DNA from: a virus
Direction: 5' to 3' (one strand)
IMG/VR virus record: IMGVR_UViG_3300045988_017927
Location: 1 to 43,643 of that record
Length of the DNA: 43,643 nt
The translations under genes were made by a program, and so were the position numbers. Shown piece after piece: positions 8,269-14,162 of the stretch; position 1 is the first letter of the stretch; every line of letters begins with the position of its first letter. The notes below the pieces were generated by a model. That model was not told where the DNA came from. It ran no database searches and saw only the letters and a program-made list of their open reading frames with translations.

Positions 8269-8472
8269 TTAGGCTTCGACACGTTCGCTGAATAGGTATT
8301 CTAATTCATATTCTGGGAAGAACGCCTTCTTGATAGCTACTGTTTCGCCAAAACTGAAATCTGTAACACCGTTGATTTTGCTACGAACCGTGCGGTAATC
8401 AACTCCGAGCAAGTCTGCGATGTCTACTAATGTTACGCCTTTACTCTTACGAATTTCTTCAATGTTTTTCAT
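8269..8472 (-). CDS. Cro-like XRE-family HTH regulator
   Basis: 67 aa with KGVTLVDIADLLGVDYRTVRSKING. First gene of the minus-strand early operon, divergent from the repressor. Confidence 0.75.
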   Translation of the reverse strand: MKNIEEIRKSKGVTLVDIADLLGVDYRTVRSKINGVTDFSFGETVAIKKAFFPEYELEYLFSERVEA

Positions 8473-8501
8473 TTGCTTCCTCCTTCCTTAAGCTTGATTT
8501 A

Positions 8502-8530
8502 AGTATATACTAATTTTCGTACACTGTCAA
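8502..8530 (-). promoter_or_regulatory. Early lytic promoter (TTGACA-17 nt-TATACT)
   Basis: Minus strand reads TTGACAgtgtacgaaaattagtaTATACT. An operator-like 15/18 match to the palindrome overlaps the spacer and -10. Confidence 0.65.
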
Positions 8531-8561
8531 CAGAAAAATACGATTTTTTTTACTTTTTTTA

Positions 8562-8590
8562 TTTACCTATACGATTTTCTGTGTTAATAT
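8562..8590 (+). promoter_or_regulatory. Repressor (lysogenic) promoter TTTACC-17 nt-TGtTAATAT
   Basis: Extended -10 TGTTAATAT at 8582-8590. The half-site TATACGA (8568-8574) lies in the spacer. Confidence 0.55.
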
Positions 8591-8621
8591 ATAGGTAGAA
8601 ATAAAAATGAGGGTTATAAAA

Positions 8622-8966
8622 ATGCAGGCTGAAGAAAGAATTAAAGAGCTTATTATAGCTAAATATGGAAATGTTAGAGCTTTTGCGACAGAAAGCGGCA
8701 TCTCTTACACTACTGTTCGCTCTATTTTGGAACGTGGTATCATGAACGCAAAAGCTGAGAATGTTTTCAAGATATGTCATTTATTGGGGATATCACCAGA
8801 CACTGTTGCAGATTGGGGAGTTTCCGAAGAACAACAACCCAGCCCCCATGACATCGACGAAATCATAGCCAATGCCATGATGTTCGACGGCAAACCTCTT
8901 ACCGAGAGCGACAAACGTGCCATTCGTGGCATAATCGCTGGTTACATGAGTAGCAAGGAGAAATAG
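8622..8966 (+). CDS. XRE-family phage repressor (ImmR/CI-like, no S24 peptidase domain)
   Basis: HTH NVRAFATESGISYTTVRSILERG. ATG 8622 is preferred (GAGGG 8 nt upstream); the alternative start is 8607. Confidence 0.8.
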   Translation: MQAEERIKELIIAKYGNVRAFATESGISYTTVRSILERGIMNAKAENVFKICHLLGISPDTVADWGVSEEQQPSPHDIDEIIANAMMFDGKPLTESDKRAIRGIIAGYMSSKEK

Positions 8967-8967
8967 T

Positions 8968-9396
8968 ATGGTAAGTATCGCTATGAAGCCAAATCCGTTT
9001 AAGGAAAAGATTGCTGGGGTCAAACTTTCTGAAGCTGACAGCGGCGAAGAACTTAGCACATTAAACAAGTTATCGAGTTATCCGACGGGCGTGGCGCTGA
9101 ATTGTTCTATAGACTTCTTCAACATCCAACCCGAAACGAACTACACGCTAGTAGTTACTGCAAATTTTCCGAGTGGAGAGTCTCATCCCTTCCATGCTAC
9201 GAACGTCTATATACCAAAGTCAAGCATTTCAGCCCCTGATAATGAAGGGTACGGGAAAGCGGCCGGGGATTTTGCCTTTGATTTAACCTTGATGGAAAAA
9301 GGGGATTTGTTCCTGTTGTTCGCTTTGATAAAGGGTGATAAGGTTGCTGATACATTTTACTGCTACTATTATTTCGGGGGTGGTATAAATGGATAA
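8968..9396 (+). CDS. Hypothetical soluble beta-rich protein (142 aa), lysogeny operon
   Basis: Starts 1 nt after the repressor stop. No TM segment, signal peptide or recognisable motif. Ends YCYYYFGGGING. Confidence 0.6.
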   Translation: MVSIAMKPNPFKEKIAGVKLSEADSGEELSTLNKLSSYPTGVALNCSIDFFNIQPETNYTLVVTANFPSGESHPFHATNVYIPKSSISAPDNEGYGKAAGDFAFDLTLMEKGDLFLLFALIKGDKVADTFYCYYYFGGGING

Positions 9397-9961
9397 TACT
9401 CGAGATATCGAAATTCCTAAAACAAATGACACCGCAAACGCTAGACAGTCTAAGGTAACTTCTATAGACTCCGGCAAAAGAATCAACACCCAAACACCCC
9501 ATGCAAGTGATATAATGGACTTACAAAATCAAATAGATGAGGTAAGAAAAATGGCTATTGACTTGTATCGTGAACTGGATATCCAGGCGCTTGAGCAAAG
9601 ATTGGAAAAGAACGAAGAAAACACTCAACGCATTCTCCAGCAAACAGCCCAGAGTTTAAATCAAGATAAGACTGAGCTATCTCTCCGCACTGACCAGTTA
9701 GGACGTCGTATTGAAAAAATTGAAAACAAACTGGACGACATGTATGCCAAAAACGAACTGGACTTAAAATTCCAGATGATGGACCAAAAGATTGACGCTA
9801 AATTTGATACCTTTGGTCAACGCATGGAAAACATGTTCTTAGCACAAACCAATAGGCAACTTGAGGAACAAGCCAAGAATAGAAAAGAATTCACTTATTG
9901 GTTTATTGGTATCCTTGTAGCTCTTGCCGGTATTGCTATTCCTGTCTGGTTCGGCAAATAA
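9389..9961 (+). CDS. Tail-anchored coiled-coil membrane protein (190 aa), XhlA-like architecture
   Basis: The ATG overlaps the upstream stop by 8 nt. Long heptad-rich region, then the C-terminal TM segment FTYWFIGILVALAGIAIPVWFGK. Confidence 0.6.
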   Translation: MDNTRDIEIPKTNDTANARQSKVTSIDSGKRINTQTPHASDIMDLQNQIDEVRKMAIDLYRELDIQALEQRLEKNEENTQRILQQTAQSLNQDKTELSLRTDQLGRRIEKIENKLDDMYAKNELDLKFQMMDQKIDAKFDTFGQRMENMFLAQTNRQLEEQAKNRKEFTYWFIGILVALAGIAIPVWFGK

Positions 9962-9976
9962 TATCATGGAGGCTCT

Positions 9977-10345
9977 ATGACTGAAAGTGAATTGCTTGAG
10001 CAGTTCAACGTGTCTCTTTGTGAGTTCGACTCTAGTCAGTGGCCCAGAAACGGCTTTATCGACACGATAAATAGGGTTGTTTACATCAACGGGGATTTAG
10101 ACCAAGACACTCGTTTAAAGGTTATTTTGCATGAAATAGGGCACTTAGAACACGATTCTAAAAACTATGAGCGATTGCGTGAGAAATACGAAGCTCAAGC
10201 TAATAGAAATATGATCCATGAATTGTTGAAAAACGAAAATCTTGATGATTTTAATTACTTACACTTTATGGAAAAATATAATCTCACCACTATTTGTGAT
10301 GAGACTTTTGTAAAAAATGAATATTTAAAAATGATGAGGAATTGA
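9977..10345 (+). CDS. ImmA/IrrE-family (DUF955) zinc metallopeptidase
   Basis: HEIGHLEH (HExxH) followed by EAQANRNMIHELL. Typical partner of XRE repressors that lack an autocleavage domain. Confidence 0.7.
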   Translation: MTESELLEQFNVSLCEFDSSQWPRNGFIDTINRVVYINGDLDQDTRLKVILHEIGHLEHDSKNYERLREKYEAQANRNMIHELLKNENLDDFNYLHFMEKYNLTTICDETFVKNEYLKMMRN

Positions 10346-10346
10346 T

Positions 10347-10802
10347 ATGAAACTTTTGAAAAAATACAAATGGTATATCTTAACAATTATAGTTTTATTC
10401 TGTTTTGGCTTAATGTTTGTGCCACGGTCTGGGAAGGAACCGAAGGAAACAAAACAGTCTAAGACTGTCAAAGTAACAAAACACTCCAAAAAGTCAAGCA
10501 AGCATAGTTCTTCTTCGACTTCAAAAGTTTCTAGCAGTTCAAGTTCAGAGCAACCGCAACAACCACAAGAACAGACGCAAACTGAGGCTTCTCAAGATCA
10601 GCAAGAAAAACCTATTGACGGTGTAGGGCCTACGCAATCACAAGTAGACCAAGCGACTGAACAATATGGGTATACTCCGGGGTATGGCGGAGTGCCTTCC
10701 GATTCTCCTGAGATAGCAAGAGAACAATCAGACCAACAAGCACGCGAAAACTGGCATGATAGTCAAGTTGAGTGGGCTAAACAACAAGGGCTTATGGATT
10801 AA
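10347..10802 (+). CDS. N-terminally membrane-anchored Ser/Gln-rich extracellular protein (superinfection-exclusion candidate)
   Basis: TM segment WYILTIIVLFCFGLMFV with no lipobox. Low-complexity stretch SSKHSSSSTSKVSSSSSSEQPQQPQEQ. Located next to int. Confidence 0.55.
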   Translation: MKLLKKYKWYILTIIVLFCFGLMFVPRSGKEPKETKQSKTVKVTKHSKKSSKHSSSSTSKVSSSSSSEQPQQPQEQTQTEASQDQQEKPIDGVGPTQSQVDQATEQYGYTPGYGGVPSDSPEIAREQSDQQARENWHDSQVEWAKQQGLMD

Positions 10803-10807
10803 CCCAA

Positions 10808-10831
10808 TAAAAAAACCAGTCTTTCGACTGG
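10808..10831 (-). terminator. Minus-strand intrinsic terminator between two plus-strand genes
   Basis: Minus strand reads CCAGTC-gaaa-GACTGG followed by TTTTTTTT. Confidence 0.6.
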
Positions 10832-10916
10832 CCAAACTATATCAAGGGAGTGTGTGAGATAAATAGTAAAACCCTCACCACCGCCCTTTTATTATACCAT
10901 AATAGAGGACTAAACA

Positions 10917-11996
10917 ATGGCATCATACAGAAAACGGGAGAACGGTTGGGAGTATCGGATAAACTACTACGATTCGACTGGGAAACGCAAACCAAAGTCA
11001 AAGGGTGGTTTTAGGACAAAATCTGAAGCCATCAAGGCTGCTGCTGAGATGGAGCTGAAAATACAAGACGGCTTGAATGTGGATGAAGATATTACTCTTT
11101 ACGCTTATTTTAAGCAATGGTGCGAAGTTTATAAGAAACCTACCGTTTCAAAAATAACTTATAAGGCATATATCAACACTCAACGCAAGATAGAATTATT
11201 CTTTAGTGACAAGAAACTGAAATCTGTTACTGCTACACAATACCAGCGTGTGCTGAATAGCTACGCTAAAACTCACGCTCAAGATACTGTCGAGCGTTTT
11301 AATGTGCATGTCAAATCATGTATTGAAATGGCAGTGCATGAAGGATATATCAAACGCAACTTTTGTAAATTCGCTAAAATCAATGCTAAGAACAAAGGGC
11401 GTGATATCGAAACGAAATTCCTGGAGGTCGAAGAATACGAGCGATTGATCTATGAGGCAAGCAAACATCCAGAGTATGCGTCTTATGCAGCACTCTATAT
11501 CATAGCTAAAACTGGTATCCGTTTTGCTGAGTGTCTAGGCTTAACGGTGGATGATATCAACAGAGACACTGGCATGTTATCAGTCAATAAAACGTGGGAC
11601 TATAAAAATAACACTGGCTTTCTACCGACAAAAACAAAAAGCAGTATCCGAGAGATACCGCTTGATGATGATTTTATAAATTTTATTGACCAACTACCAC
11701 CTACTGAAGACGGCAGACTACTACCTTCACTATCCAACAATGCAGTTAATAAAACCTTGCGGAAAATTGTTGGTCGTGAGGTGCGTGTCCATTCGTTAAG
11801 GCATACTTACGCTAGCTACTTAATAGCCCATGATATCGACTTGATTTCCGTGTCGCAAGTTTTAGGGCATGAGAACTTAAACATTACACTAGAGGTTTAC
11901 GCCCACCAGTTACAAGAACAGAAATCACGAAACGATGAAAAAATAAAACAAATGTGGACAGAATGTGGACAAAACGCTTTAAAACCGCATGGTTAA
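10917..11996 (+). CDS. int: Tyrosine integrase with N-terminal arm-type DNA-binding domain
   Basis: N-terminus YRKRENGWEYRINYYDSTGKRKPKSKGGFRTKSEA. Catalytic region GIRFAECLGL...HSLRHTYASYL...LGHENLNITLEVYAH (R, H-x-x-R and Y residues). Confidence 0.9.
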   Translation: MASYRKRENGWEYRINYYDSTGKRKPKSKGGFRTKSEAIKAAAEMELKIQDGLNVDEDITLYAYFKQWCEVYKKPTVSKITYKAYINTQRKIELFFSDKKLKSVTATQYQRVLNSYAKTHAQDTVERFNVHVKSCIEMAVHEGYIKRNFCKFAKINAKNKGRDIETKFLEVEEYERLIYEASKHPEYASYAALYIIAKTGIRFAECLGLTVDDINRDTGMLSVNKTWDYKNNTGFLPTKTKSSIREIPLDDDFINFIDQLPPTEDGRLLPSLSNNAVNKTLRKIVGREVRVHSLRHTYASYLIAHDIDLISVSQVLGHENLNITLEVYAHQLQEQKSRNDEKIKQMWTECGQNALKPHG

Positions 11997-12142
11997 AGGC
12001 TTAAAAATGTCCCCTGCCAACGAAAAGATGTAAAATATAAAAATAAATGAAAACTACAAAGGCTTGACTTTACTAGGTTTTTATAGTTTTTATTTTTATT
12101 TATTTTCGTAGTTTTTTGAAAAAGGTGGACAGAAAGGTGGAC

Positions 12143-12171
12143 AAAAAAAGAACCACCCATAAAAGGGCGGC
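12143..12171 (-). terminator. Intrinsic terminator (unit 0)
   Basis: Minus strand GCCGCCC-ttttat-GGGTGGT (two G-U pairs) followed by TCTTTTTTT. Confidence 0.5.
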
Positions 12172-12212
12172 ATCTACCTATGAAGGCTATTCTCAAAACC
12201 AATACTATTATA

Positions 12213-12241
12213 ACACAAAAAGGACTGTCGAAACAATCCTT
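12213..12241 (-). terminator. Intrinsic terminator (unit 1)
   Basis: Minus strand AAGGATTG-tttcga-CAGTCCTT followed by TTT, running directly into GTGTTATAAT. Confidence 0.55.
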
Positions 12242-12346
12242 TCCAGAAAATTCCATCGGGCTACGTGCACATAGCTTACATGGCGCTGAGCTCAATCAGT
12301 CTTTGGAACAGTCAAGGCTTGCTTGCTGTAGGTATATTATACCACA

Positions 12347-12380
12347 GAAAAATAAAAAACACCTCCTAACAAGAGATGTT
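12347..12380 (-). terminator. Intrinsic terminator (unit 2)
   Basis: Minus strand AACATCTC-ttgttag-GAGGTGTT followed by TTTTTATTTTT. Confidence 0.6.
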
Positions 12381-12663
12381 TTCCGCAAATGGGTCCCGTA
12401 AGATTATCCACAGCTATTCCTATTAATTTTAACACAAAAAAAATAAAAAACCCTGCGTCAGAGCGTATCTGTCCATAGTGGATGCAGGGGGATTGTCGTT
12501 TCATGTATATTATAGCACAAAAAAAGGCCTTAGCAGTCGCCAAACTCACAAGCCTTTAAGCATTCACAACTAAAACGCAACACACTGGCAGGCAAGCCAT
12601 ATTATGTCGGGTTTTAGAACACTTATAAAGATACCTCAATTATACCACAATCCGAATTTATAA

Positions 12664-12697
12664 CAAATAAAAAAGCCCCAGCACAATGCTGAGGCTT
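12664..12697 (-). terminator. Intrinsic terminator after the endolysin
   Basis: Minus strand AAGCCTCAGCA-ttgt-GCTGGGGCTT followed by TTTTTTATTT. Confidence 0.7.
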
Positions 12698-12776
12698 CGA
12701 CCACTACCACCATGATGTCCGAACTGTGGTCTGTCGGGAGGTGATATACTCCTTTTATTTTATTTTTGTTCGTGAT

Positions 12777-14162
12777 CTATTTTCCAGTTTGGCCTTGTGT
12801 AGCTTGTGCACGTTCTTCAATCGCTTTAACAACCGATGCGCTAGCTTCATTGATTGCCTTAGAGACTGCTGCCGTATCATTTGACTGACTATTCAAGAAG
12901 CGGTCAAAATCATCGTCTGGCAAGGTCAAGTGTTTAGCTCCCGCTGAACGTAGAGCGTCTACTGTTCCCATTGAGCCGATACCAAATACACGACCATTAA
13001 CTACACCAAGATATCCTTGGCTTCCGCTTTCGCTACGCAATACATAATCCATATTTTCTTCTTCCTCTTTCTGATTTACTAAACTATCACCGTCATTGAT
13101 GATAACAACATTTTTATCCAATCCACCAGCTAAGCCGGTTGATGTAAACTGCCACCAGCGTGTGTGTTCCATGTTTGGATACACGCCCCAATATGGCTCT
13201 GGGCGTACCTCATAATCTGGGTACGCTGCAATCCATAGGCTATTTGGATAGCGTGCAGTGATTTGATCTACATACACATTAGCTAGTGTATACGGCTTGT
13301 AACTGTAATAGATTGGTTCAAAGCCGTTTGATTTACAAACATCCATAAACGCTAGGACTGCATTAGTATTCGCTTGCTTATCACCGCTTGCCCCATCTTC
13401 ATAATCACACACTAAGTAGCGTGGGTGTGATGGCAGATTACTGATAAAATAATTAGCTTCAGCTTGCGCCGTTGCTACATCTCCACCGAATCGTGCAAAG
13501 TGATAGTAACCAATACAATTACTTGTGTTAGTTTGTTGAGTAGCTACTGAGCTAACCCAGCCCACACCCTCGGTTACTTTAATAACCGTGTTATTAGTGC
13601 CAGACGCTTGACAGATACCAGTCAAGTCTCCCGGTTGGTATGCTGATACGTCGATAAAATAATTATCTTGTGCCATACCGTCAAACGGCAATTCAAACCA
13701 CCCAACCATTTGCTGACTTGGTGCACTCCAGTCGATATAGCTGAAATTACCGGCGCTATCAAGATTGCGTGTTACCTTGCGTGTCCACCCACCGTTGTAT
13801 AGAGCATCACCGTTGCCGTCGATATTCTGTTCGACTGTGGTGACTGTCCCGTCTGGGTTTTCTGCGACCACGAAACCAATGTGCCCGAATTGGTGATATG
13901 GCAAGCAGTTAGTTACCCAAACACTGCCTACCGGTGGGTTATTCGCACCGTTAAAGTAAGTGACTTTCAAACCTAGACTTTCAGCACGGCTTAACGCATC
14001 AATAGCGTTTAAGTAGCTGAAATTAAGATTAAACAAGCCTTGATATTGCAACACGTTGTCAATCAAAGCCACGCACTGACCACCATAAGGATTGGTAGGC
14101 ACGGTTACACGTTGATTGACTAGGCTTTCAAGCGCGTTTAATAACTGTGTTTTAGATGTCAT
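12777..14162 (-). CDS. Endolysin: N-terminal CHAP, central GH25 muramidase, C-terminal putative wall-binding domain
   Basis: CHAP residues GGQCVALID and FGHIGFVV..EQN. GH25 motifs FIDVSAYQ, VIKVTEG, YYHFARF, CDYED. The distinct C-terminal ~90 aa follow a KEEEEN linker. Confidence 0.85.
   Translation of the reverse strand: MTSKTQLLNALESLVNQRVTVPTNPYGGQCVALIDNVLQYQGLFNLNFSYLNAIDALSRAESLGLKVTYFNGANNPPVGSVWVTNCLPYHQFGHIGFVVAENPDGTVTTVEQNIDGNGDALYNGGWTRKVTRNLDSAGNFSYIDWSAPSQQMVGWFELPFDGMAQDNYFIDVSAYQPGDLTGICQASGTNNTVIKVTEGVGWVSSVATQQTNTSNCIGYYHFARFGGDVATAQAEANYFISNLPSHPRYLVCDYEDGASGDKQANTNAVLAFMDVCKSNGFEPIYYSYKPYTLANVYVDQITARYPNSLWIAAYPDYEVRPEPYWGVYPNMEHTRWWQFTSTGLAGGLDKNVVIINDGDSLVNQKEEEENMDYVLRSESGSQGYLGVVNGRVFGIGSMGTVDALRSAGAKHLTLPDDDFDRFLNSQSNDTAAVSKAINEASASVVKAIEERAQATQGQTGK

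Follow-up and report, generated by a model that had tools for sequence, protein, structure and literature searches.

A conserved gene pair in the lysogeny modules of streptococcal phages, a candidate exclusion or abortive-infection system

Repressor-linked exclusion genes and the A-B cassette

In a phage lambda lysogen, the repressor promoter drives the repressor gene cI together with rexA and rexB, the genes of the two-component exclusion system RexAB. The same order of co-oriented genes, for a repressor, a soluble protein and a membrane protein, is found in a 43,643-nucleotide (nt) stretch of viral DNA (IMG/VR record IMGVR_UViG_3300045988_017927, positions 1 to 43,643; hereafter the window) from a Streptococcus salivarius-type phage. 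The subject of this paper is the cassette formed by the second and third of these genes, which we call A (8968..9396, + strand, 142 residues) and B (9389..9961, + strand, 190 residues). We propose, with a probability of roughly 0.45, that A-B is an autonomous accessory (moron) module that is expressed in the lysogen and acts as a Rex-like exclusion or abortive-infection pair. RexA carries a DUF4747 domain and RexB has four transmembrane (TM) helices (PMC6426596). The proteins themselves differ: RexA has 278 residues whereas A is a predicted beta-sandwich of 142, and in place of the four TM helices of RexB, B has one C-terminal TM segment and a long, predicted cytoplasmic helix.

A-B lies directly downstream of the repressor gene and in the same orientation. 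The ATG of A (8968) falls 1 nt past the repressor stop codon, with an AAGGAG 9 nt upstream of it, and the ATG of B (9389) overlaps the TAA stop codon of A (9394-9396) by 8 nt; the open reading frame (ORF) map therefore agrees with the gene boundaries, gap and overlap given in an original prediction that was made from the letters alone and that had proposed a new defence pair. From the repressor gene to the gene for a 151-residue protein further downstream, neighbouring genes either overlap or are separated by 1 to 15 nt, and a terminator scan revealed no terminator-like site on the + strand within 8607-10802. A-B would thus be transcribed with the prophage repressor, and hence made in the lysogen. 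B, predicted to be tail-anchored with its long helix in the cytoplasm, would be the membrane-acting component, which might form oligomers that disturb the membrane or might stop DNA from entering at the inner face, and A would bind a phage-derived or cellular ligand and gate or target its partner. We infer lysogen expression, the anti-phage phenotype, the assignment of sensor and effector roles and the membrane damage; the defence-pair idea itself gains from the finding of a conserved, linked pair that has no homology to housekeeping phage functions. The points that argue for exclusion are the coupling and conservation of the two genes, their mobility as a unit, their toxin-antitoxin and Abi neighbourhood, the exchange of B for an Abi_2 gene and the retention of the pair in a prophage remnant.

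Pairs of a cytoplasmic and a membrane protein that are expressed from a prophage and provide heterotypic host defence have been described in Sbash (gp30/gp31; PMC6426596) and Butters (gp30/gp31; PMC7542560). Like A-B, these are prophage-encoded soluble and membrane pairs; they come from actinobacteriophages, their membrane partner has four TM helices, and a PADLOC scan of A and B gave no significant match. In dairy streptococcal and lactococcal prophages, the superinfection-exclusion genes for Ltp (TP-J34), orf203 (Sfi21) and Sie2009 are of moron type, are expressed in the lysogen and lie between repressor and integrase (PMC3952083, PMC6356513), which is the genomic neighbourhood of A-B as well. 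Each of these is a lone gene, whose product is either a surface lipoprotein or a membrane protein anchored at its N-terminus and active outside or within the membrane, whereas A-B encodes a cytoplasm-facing pair, and the better positional analogue of ltp in the window is the gene for the 151-residue protein (10347-10802) rather than A-B. Lactococcal AbiT was also considered and was dropped as a poor analogue, given that AbiTi has an endoribonuclease domain and that the AbiTii homologues of other bacteria are HEPN proteins, according to a 2026 review.

The lysogeny modules of pneumococcal prophages contain accessory genes, szaL and spaL, that affect activation, the timing of the burst and its dependence on density (PMC12637031). 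SzaL, SpaL and ThaL resemble A-B in being encoded by accessory genes within streptococcal lysogeny modules (PMC12637031). By their published descriptions (surface zinc proteins and a TM protein with a HIRAN domain) they are unrelated to A-B, and the demonstrated role of SzaL and SpaL is activation control, not exclusion. The szaL/spaL precedent of non-homologous accessory genes (PMC12637031), together with the position of A-B inside the repressor operon, favours what we regard as the main rival explanation, although an unlikely one: that A and B are co-regulators of their own prophage which tune excision, replication or lysis, for instance through membrane sequestration of a regulator or in the manner of an XhlA-like lysis accessory. 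A literature search found no paper on protein A or B, and A-B matches no characterised family; the concept, of prophage morons in the immunity region and of two-gene exclusion systems, is already well known.

Conservation, layouts and neighbours of the pair

Comparison with the S. salivarius phage YMC-2011 (L070) reveals the cassette as a clean insertion between repressor and protease, as had been predicted. In YMC-2011 the two genes abut, with no A-B between them. The blastn alignment of the window to this phage, at 88-90% nt identity, stops at window position 8962 and restarts at 9969, and the junction alignment places about 1 kb of the window (8963..9968, + strand) where YMC-2011 has 2 bp, between the repressor stop codon and the ribosome-binding site of the protease gene. 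The lysogeny module of YMC-2011-type phages looks complete without A-B, which argues against the pair being a co-regulator of the prophage.

We conclude from their sequences that A and B are real genes under purifying selection, rather than chance ORFs, based on their PHROG matches, their orthologues in many Streptococcus species and their low ratio of nonsynonymous to synonymous substitution rates (dN/dS about 0.15; medians of 0.16 for A and 0.13 for B in 22 close relatives). Both proteins are 100% identical in Javan534, Javan535 and Javan539; in the GenBank records of these phages (MK448979, MK448799 and MK448800, respectively) gene A lies at 2245-2670 and carries no coding sequence annotation. 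Orthologues with 27-45% identity occur across many Streptococcus species, in phages or prophages of S. pneumoniae (IPP34 and others), S. suis (phi20c and several Javan phages), S. agalactiae, S. parauberis, S. entericus, S. infantis, S. parasanguinis and S. thalassemiae. A search of 1.84 billion representatives with the A profile hidden Markov model (HMM) yielded 66 clusters, nearly all of stand-alone proteins of 130-150 residues, and the named members of the 10 clusters looked up were all from Streptococcus or from uncultured Caudoviricetes phages. Long multi-domain proteins among the matches were fn3, WD40 and Ig repeat proteins, which we discarded as spurious beta-strand matches. No plasmid homologues of A or B were found.

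The pair is confined to streptococci, the A family being seen almost exclusively in Streptococcus prophages, and its synteny is strong. In an HMM screen, B lies immediately downstream of A in 42 of 46 A-bearing sources, and A immediately upstream of B in 61 of 67 loci ascertained through B, although many of the loci behind these counts are near-duplicates that represent about 15 distinct lineages. In three of the four A-bearing sources without an HMM-detectable B, a protein of 112-129 residues takes the position of B and shares its architecture, featuring a 'YSKxEIDAKN' helix as well as a C-terminal TM segment. The spacing from A to B ranges from -16 to +6 nt in 16 curated pairs. Co-occurrence is thus conserved, and A-B is mobile as a unit. 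At locus L148, B and a preceding gene for a 156-residue protein that is weakly A-like lie directly behind a lysin gene; proteins of 156-158 residues upstream of B in L127 and L148 were considered as A homologues and not accepted, since hhalign E values of 0.016-0.047 do not establish homology. A mirror-tree comparison of the two families gave a Mantel r of 0.80 (p 2e-4), which was driven by close clades in the face of clear A/B reassortment and was not taken as evidence of co-evolution.

This synteny bears on a second rival explanation, that A and B are lysogenic-conversion genes serving host physiology unrelated to phage (envelope or stress functions), or two independent morons that travel together. 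The regions between repressor and integrase and behind the lysin gene are general moron slots (PMC3952083), A and B reassort, and each of them is found beside other genes. An adjacency kept in about 90% of loci, across proteins about 30% identical and with genes that overlap or lie at most 6 nt apart, would nevertheless be hard to explain for unrelated genes, and a surface or adhesion role is unlikely for two proteins that both face the cytoplasm. We therefore consider this explanation improbable.

The original prediction headed its description of the cassette with the splitting of an ImmR-like repressor from its ImmA-like protease, and here the wider comparison led us to a different view. Three layouts occur in comparable numbers: XRE-A-B-M78-integrase in the window and S. 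pneumoniae IPP34, XRE-M78-A-B-integrase in S. suis phi20c and mitis-group phages, and S24-cI-A-B-integrase in types from S. parasanguinis, S. thalassemiae and S. agalactiae. The pair thus also stands after ImmA, or after an S24-type cI where ImmA is missing; about 15 of the 67 B-ascertained loci, and several of those ascertained through A, lack M78 and have an S24-type cI, so that co-occurrence with ImmR/ImmA is not obligate. These layouts indicate that the pair is the constant element and that its position relative to ImmA is incidental. They also speak against co-regulation, since a pair that accompanies both ImmR/ImmA and S24-cI switches, in variable positions, is not tied to one regulatory chemistry.

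The slot between repressor and integrase is a cargo hotspot that carries RelE, PemK, Fic and Abi_2 genes. As the original prediction's idea of an exclusion context would have it, A and B are co-oriented and contiguous with the repressor gene, in a slot that elsewhere holds toxin-antitoxin and Abi genes. Javan576 (L006) has a RelE toxin gene with a small upstream ORF in this slot, and locus L110 a PemK-like gene. Satellite prophages of S. intermedius (L004 2160-4478; L072 330-4511) carry the order HTH-Abi_2-Fic-A-Abi_2-integrase, in which HTH denotes a helix-turn-helix gene and the second Abi_2 gene, of AbiD/F type, begins 3 nt after A, in place of B; this arrangement is a small defence island. 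Lactococcal AbiD/F genes require an upstream RNA element, according to a 2026 review (PMC13064643). In the S. intermedius satellites, the space upstream of the second Abi_2 gene is taken up by gene A. The reciprocal exchange is seen in one lineage, in L119 and L120 (2367-2924), downstream of S24-type repressors, where a 185-residue RelA_SpoT-like protein (PF04607, E 2e-7) replaces A and its gene immediately precedes and overlaps B. The RelA_SpoT-like domain family includes the toxSAS toxins.

It is possible, if doubtful, that A-B is an unrecognised two-component abortive-infection or exclusion system of streptococcal prophages and satellites, in which A would be a small beta-sandwich sensor or adaptor that can be coupled with B or, alternatively, with an Abi_2/HEPN effector, and B a single-pass, tail-anchored helical membrane effector. 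If so, such a sensor-effector system would be present in the immunity operons of phages of S. pneumoniae, S. agalactiae, S. suis, S. thermophilus and oral streptococci.

Retention of the pair in a decayed prophage points in the same direction as its neighbourhood. S. infantis OMI787 (L007 4027-7737) has a prophage remnant of about 3.5 kb, inserted between a host HAD hydrolase gene and rplS, that comprises a repressor gene, an ImmA stub, intact A and B, a membrane protein gene and an integrase gene, and no lytic genes. The persistence of an intact pair where nothing is left to induce argues against co-regulation of the prophage, as do the toxin-antitoxin and Abi genes that neighbour the pair elsewhere.

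Predicted architecture of proteins A and B

A was expected to be soluble and rich in beta-strands, and the AlphaFold2 (AF2) model, built on a 20-sequence alignment, is an all-beta sandwich of eight strands with a predicted local distance difference test score (pLDDT) of 88 and a predicted template-modelling score (pTM) of 0.80; no TM segment was detected (maximum KD19 1.35). Residues 1-137 match phrog_10787 (E 4.1e-34), a PHROG of unknown function. When the model was compared to the PDB with Foldseek, only generic sandwiches were retrieved (TM-scores of 0.45-0.58, 8-18% identity, E about 5e-5), among them UNC119, PDE6-delta, RhoGDI, NPC2, the carbohydrate-binding domain of Wzt and the Ig domains of beta-galactosidase; the comparison to BFVD returned the phi20c orthologue and uncharacterised phage proteins. 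The best matches include lipid- and ligand-binding sandwiches (UNC119, PDE6-delta, RhoGDI, NPC2 and Wzt), but the likeness is of a generic Ig-like kind, and nothing in A points to a hydrophobic cavity or to lipid binding. A gave no significant match in Pfam or NCBIfam, and a search of PDB sequences with the A-family alignment (A2, hmmsearch) gave 0 matches at E up to 10.

B matches phrog_6701, again of unknown function, over residues 118-189 (E 8.7e-31), and had no significant match in Pfam or NCBIfam. The statement in the original prediction that neither protein has a recognisable family therefore holds for characterised families, although both belong to PHROGs. Searches of Pfam, PHROG, NCBIfam and PDB sequences likewise gave no homology of A-B to structural, replication or lysis functions, or to any other housekeeping phage function.

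The N-terminus of B (residues 1-44) is polar, residues 45-165 are charged and contain little proline or glycine, and a hydrophobic segment lies at about 168-189 (KD19 2.13). The segment has lysine and arginine residues on its N-terminal side and is followed by just FGK, which suggests a tail-anchored protein with its bulk facing the cytoplasm. In the B family the last ~70 residues are conserved; the N-terminus differs between members, as does the count of short 'DLKF(D/E)' repeats. A short orthologue was modelled as a disordered N-terminus followed by one continuous helix (pLDDT 60-70). Of the architecture predicted earlier, the single C-terminal TM segment thus stands, as does the disordered N-terminus in the modelled orthologue, while the long coiled coil is no more than plausible, heptad periodicity in residues 45-165 not exceeding that of shuffled sequences (275/2000).

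The combination of a long charged helix with one C-terminal TM segment is shared with XhlA (PF10779) and with the CCDC90-like/DUF1640 proteins (PF07798), and B had been likened to XhlA and holin accessories. The architecture is indeed similar, and this, with faint XhlA matches in 3 of 11 homologues, counts in favour of an XhlA-like lysis accessory and hence of co-regulation. The scores, however, lie far below the Pfam thresholds: B of the window matches neither family, with no XhlA match at E up to 0.1, the best sub-threshold E values in these 3 of 11 B homologues are 0.03 for XhlA and 0.0019 for CCDC90-like, against gathering scores of about 25-33 bits, and B of Javan576 reaches 17.9 bits for CCDC90-like, below the gathering threshold of 33.5 bits. 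Nor does B have the lysis-cassette location of XhlA, since it lies in the repressor-integrase operon and the lysin gene (12777-14162) is on the opposite strand.

Several derivatives of gene B were encountered. In TP-J34 and TP-778L, orf55 and orf49, which lie downstream of the lysin gene and have been assigned to a 'lysogenic conversion' module (PMC3952083), correspond to 3' portions of gene B, about 91% identical to the window at the nt level. They form part of a decay series consisting of 156 residues with a TTG start in TP-J34 (L003 3471-3941), 123 residues with a TTG start in L066 (4070-4441) and a 27-codon stub in L069 (4001-4081). We rejected these solitary fragments as proof that B functions without A, because the first 44 or more codons are gone and the starts are TTG or CUG, as in decaying remnants. 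In L079 (4001-4903; also L080 and L081), a 300-residue ORF joins residues 1-160 of B to the C-terminal domain of an S24 peptidase at a shared RQLEEQ motif. The operon reads XRE-A-B::S24-371aa-integrase, has no M78 protease and leaves B without a TM segment; the fusion resembles a scar left when the two types of lysogeny module recombined. A 288-residue protein (P0033; L082 168-1034) that appeared to be a natural A-B fusion was rejected, since an in-frame TAG between the two genes had been read as sense by the gene caller; the TAG of this contig is identical to that in S. parasanguinis (L010). The artefact is a caution for Rosetta-stone inference from metagenome protein catalogues.

A number of observations weigh against an exclusion pair of the kind that we favour. 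No homology to the Rex proteins was detected by hhalign, the A family reaching a probability of 0.1% over 5 aligned columns with lambda RexA and the B family 0.3% with RexB. The search for a known defence system in PADLOC-DB v2, suggested with the original prediction, gave nothing significant: A had no match at E up to 1, and the best match of B, LeoC (E 0.0069, 14.5 bits), is noise of the coiled-coil type. The fold of A is generic in both the PDB and BFVD comparisons, and B, with one TM segment and three residues beyond it, is unlike known ion-channel effectors. In the AF2 model of the artificial P0033 fusion (pTM 0.48), A is confident, the linker disordered and B one long helix, without confident docking of the two, a result of limited weight because B probably oligomerises. 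Variants of A and B have also been reassorted, A of L001 being closest to A of L006 and B of L001 closest to B of L007, which argues against a finely co-evolved interface. Finally, A is truncated to about 68 codons beside an intact B in L032 (5001-5207) and L057 (3582-3788), reflecting either a sequencing error or a tolerance of B without A; B follows M78 directly, without A, in L110 and L115; and in protein P0029 the TM segment of B is replaced by an S24 domain. Such variants suggest that B alone is not obviously lethal and that the pair is dispensable.

The same variants bear on a third rival explanation, in which A-B would be an addiction module of toxin-antitoxin type that stabilises the prophage, with B as membrane toxin and A, encoded first, as protein antidote. 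As in many type II toxin-antitoxin operons, the gene for a small soluble protein lies upstream and overlaps the next, here by 8 nt, RelE and PemK-like genes occupy the same slot, and a RelA_SpoT-like gene can take the place of A beside B. The occurrence of B with a truncated A or with none, its decaying fragments without A in S. thermophilus phages, the lack of similarity of A or B to known toxin-antitoxin families in Pfam, PADLOC and NCBIfam scans and the failure of the artificial-fusion model to predict A-B docking all count against it, and make an addiction module an improbable explanation in our view.

The lysogeny module around A-B and the meaning of the pair

The switch region of the window (8473..8606) contains repeated ATACGATTTT motifs and separates the repressor operon from a divergent cro-like gene (8269..8472, - strand) that encodes a 67-residue HTH protein (HTH_3, E 7e-4; phrog_3, E 6.5e-7). 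An antirepressor gene also lies on the opposite strand, divergent from the repressor operon together with the cro-like gene. A promoter-like TTGACA-17-TATACT is present on the - strand at 8530-8502, and the promoter scan did not resolve a + strand promoter within 8473..8606. The XRE/ImmR-like repressor gene (8607..8966, + strand; TAG stop codon at 8964-8966) encodes 119 residues, with HTH_3, HTH_29 and phrog_8 matches and no S24 domain, and its region is about 90% identical to that of YMC-2011 at the nt level. The true start is probably the ATG at 8622 rather than 8607, as a GAGGG at 8609-8613 stands at an 8-nt spacing from it and the resulting product of 114 residues agrees with the YMC-2011 annotation.

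Downstream of A-B, the ImmA/IrrE-like M78 metalloprotease (9977..10345, + strand, 122 residues) has a HEIGH motif and matches PF06114 (E 1e-11) and phrog_87 (E 3e-29). The ATG of the next gene, 1 nt past the protease stop codon, begins the 151-residue protein (10347..10802, + strand; phrog_30975, E 2e-78), which has an N-terminal TM segment and a region rich in serine and glutamine. This gene occupies the slot between ImmA-like protease and integrase that holds the superinfection-exclusion genes of S. thermophilus phages (ltp and orf203), and it may be the real superinfection-exclusion candidate of the phage. In relatives, the slot is taken by genes for a 220-residue protein with several TM segments (L007 5840-6502) or a lipoprotein-like protein of 148 residues (L009 5952-6398), and in YMC-2011 by a hypothetical coding sequence of 456 nt inside the 88%-identical segment. 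The module ends with a tyrosine integrase gene (10917..11996, + strand; PF00589, E 8e-20; Arm-DNA-bind_4, E 2e-15). Between the 151-residue protein gene and the integrase gene, a terminator-like hairpin with a T-run lies on the - strand at 10814-10833, where no minus-strand gene ends; its role could be to stop antisense transcripts arriving from the attP side, or it could work in both directions. The lysin gene, on the - strand, faces the integrase gene, which indicates that the window is a genome in its phage form, with attP somewhere near 12000-12777.

Being conserved in streptococci of importance, A-B makes a solid experimental candidate; it would come as no surprise to a specialist. Its carriers include prophages of the pathogens S. 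pneumoniae, S. agalactiae and S. suis as well as phages of the dairy and oral species S. thermophilus and S. salivarius. If the exclusion reading is true, A-B would add a family that has no homology to any catalogued defence system and would be a Gram-positive counterpart of lambda cI-rexAB whose membrane partner is far simpler. Such a pair would also illustrate modular partner swapping (B for Abi_2, A for a RelA_SpoT-like protein) in the cargo slot of lysogeny modules, and would bear on phage-resistant starter cultures, phage therapy and competition between prophages. If, on the other hand, A-B serves to control induction, the pair would broaden a recent observation, namely that prophage decisions in streptococci are shaped by accessory genes in the lysogeny module.

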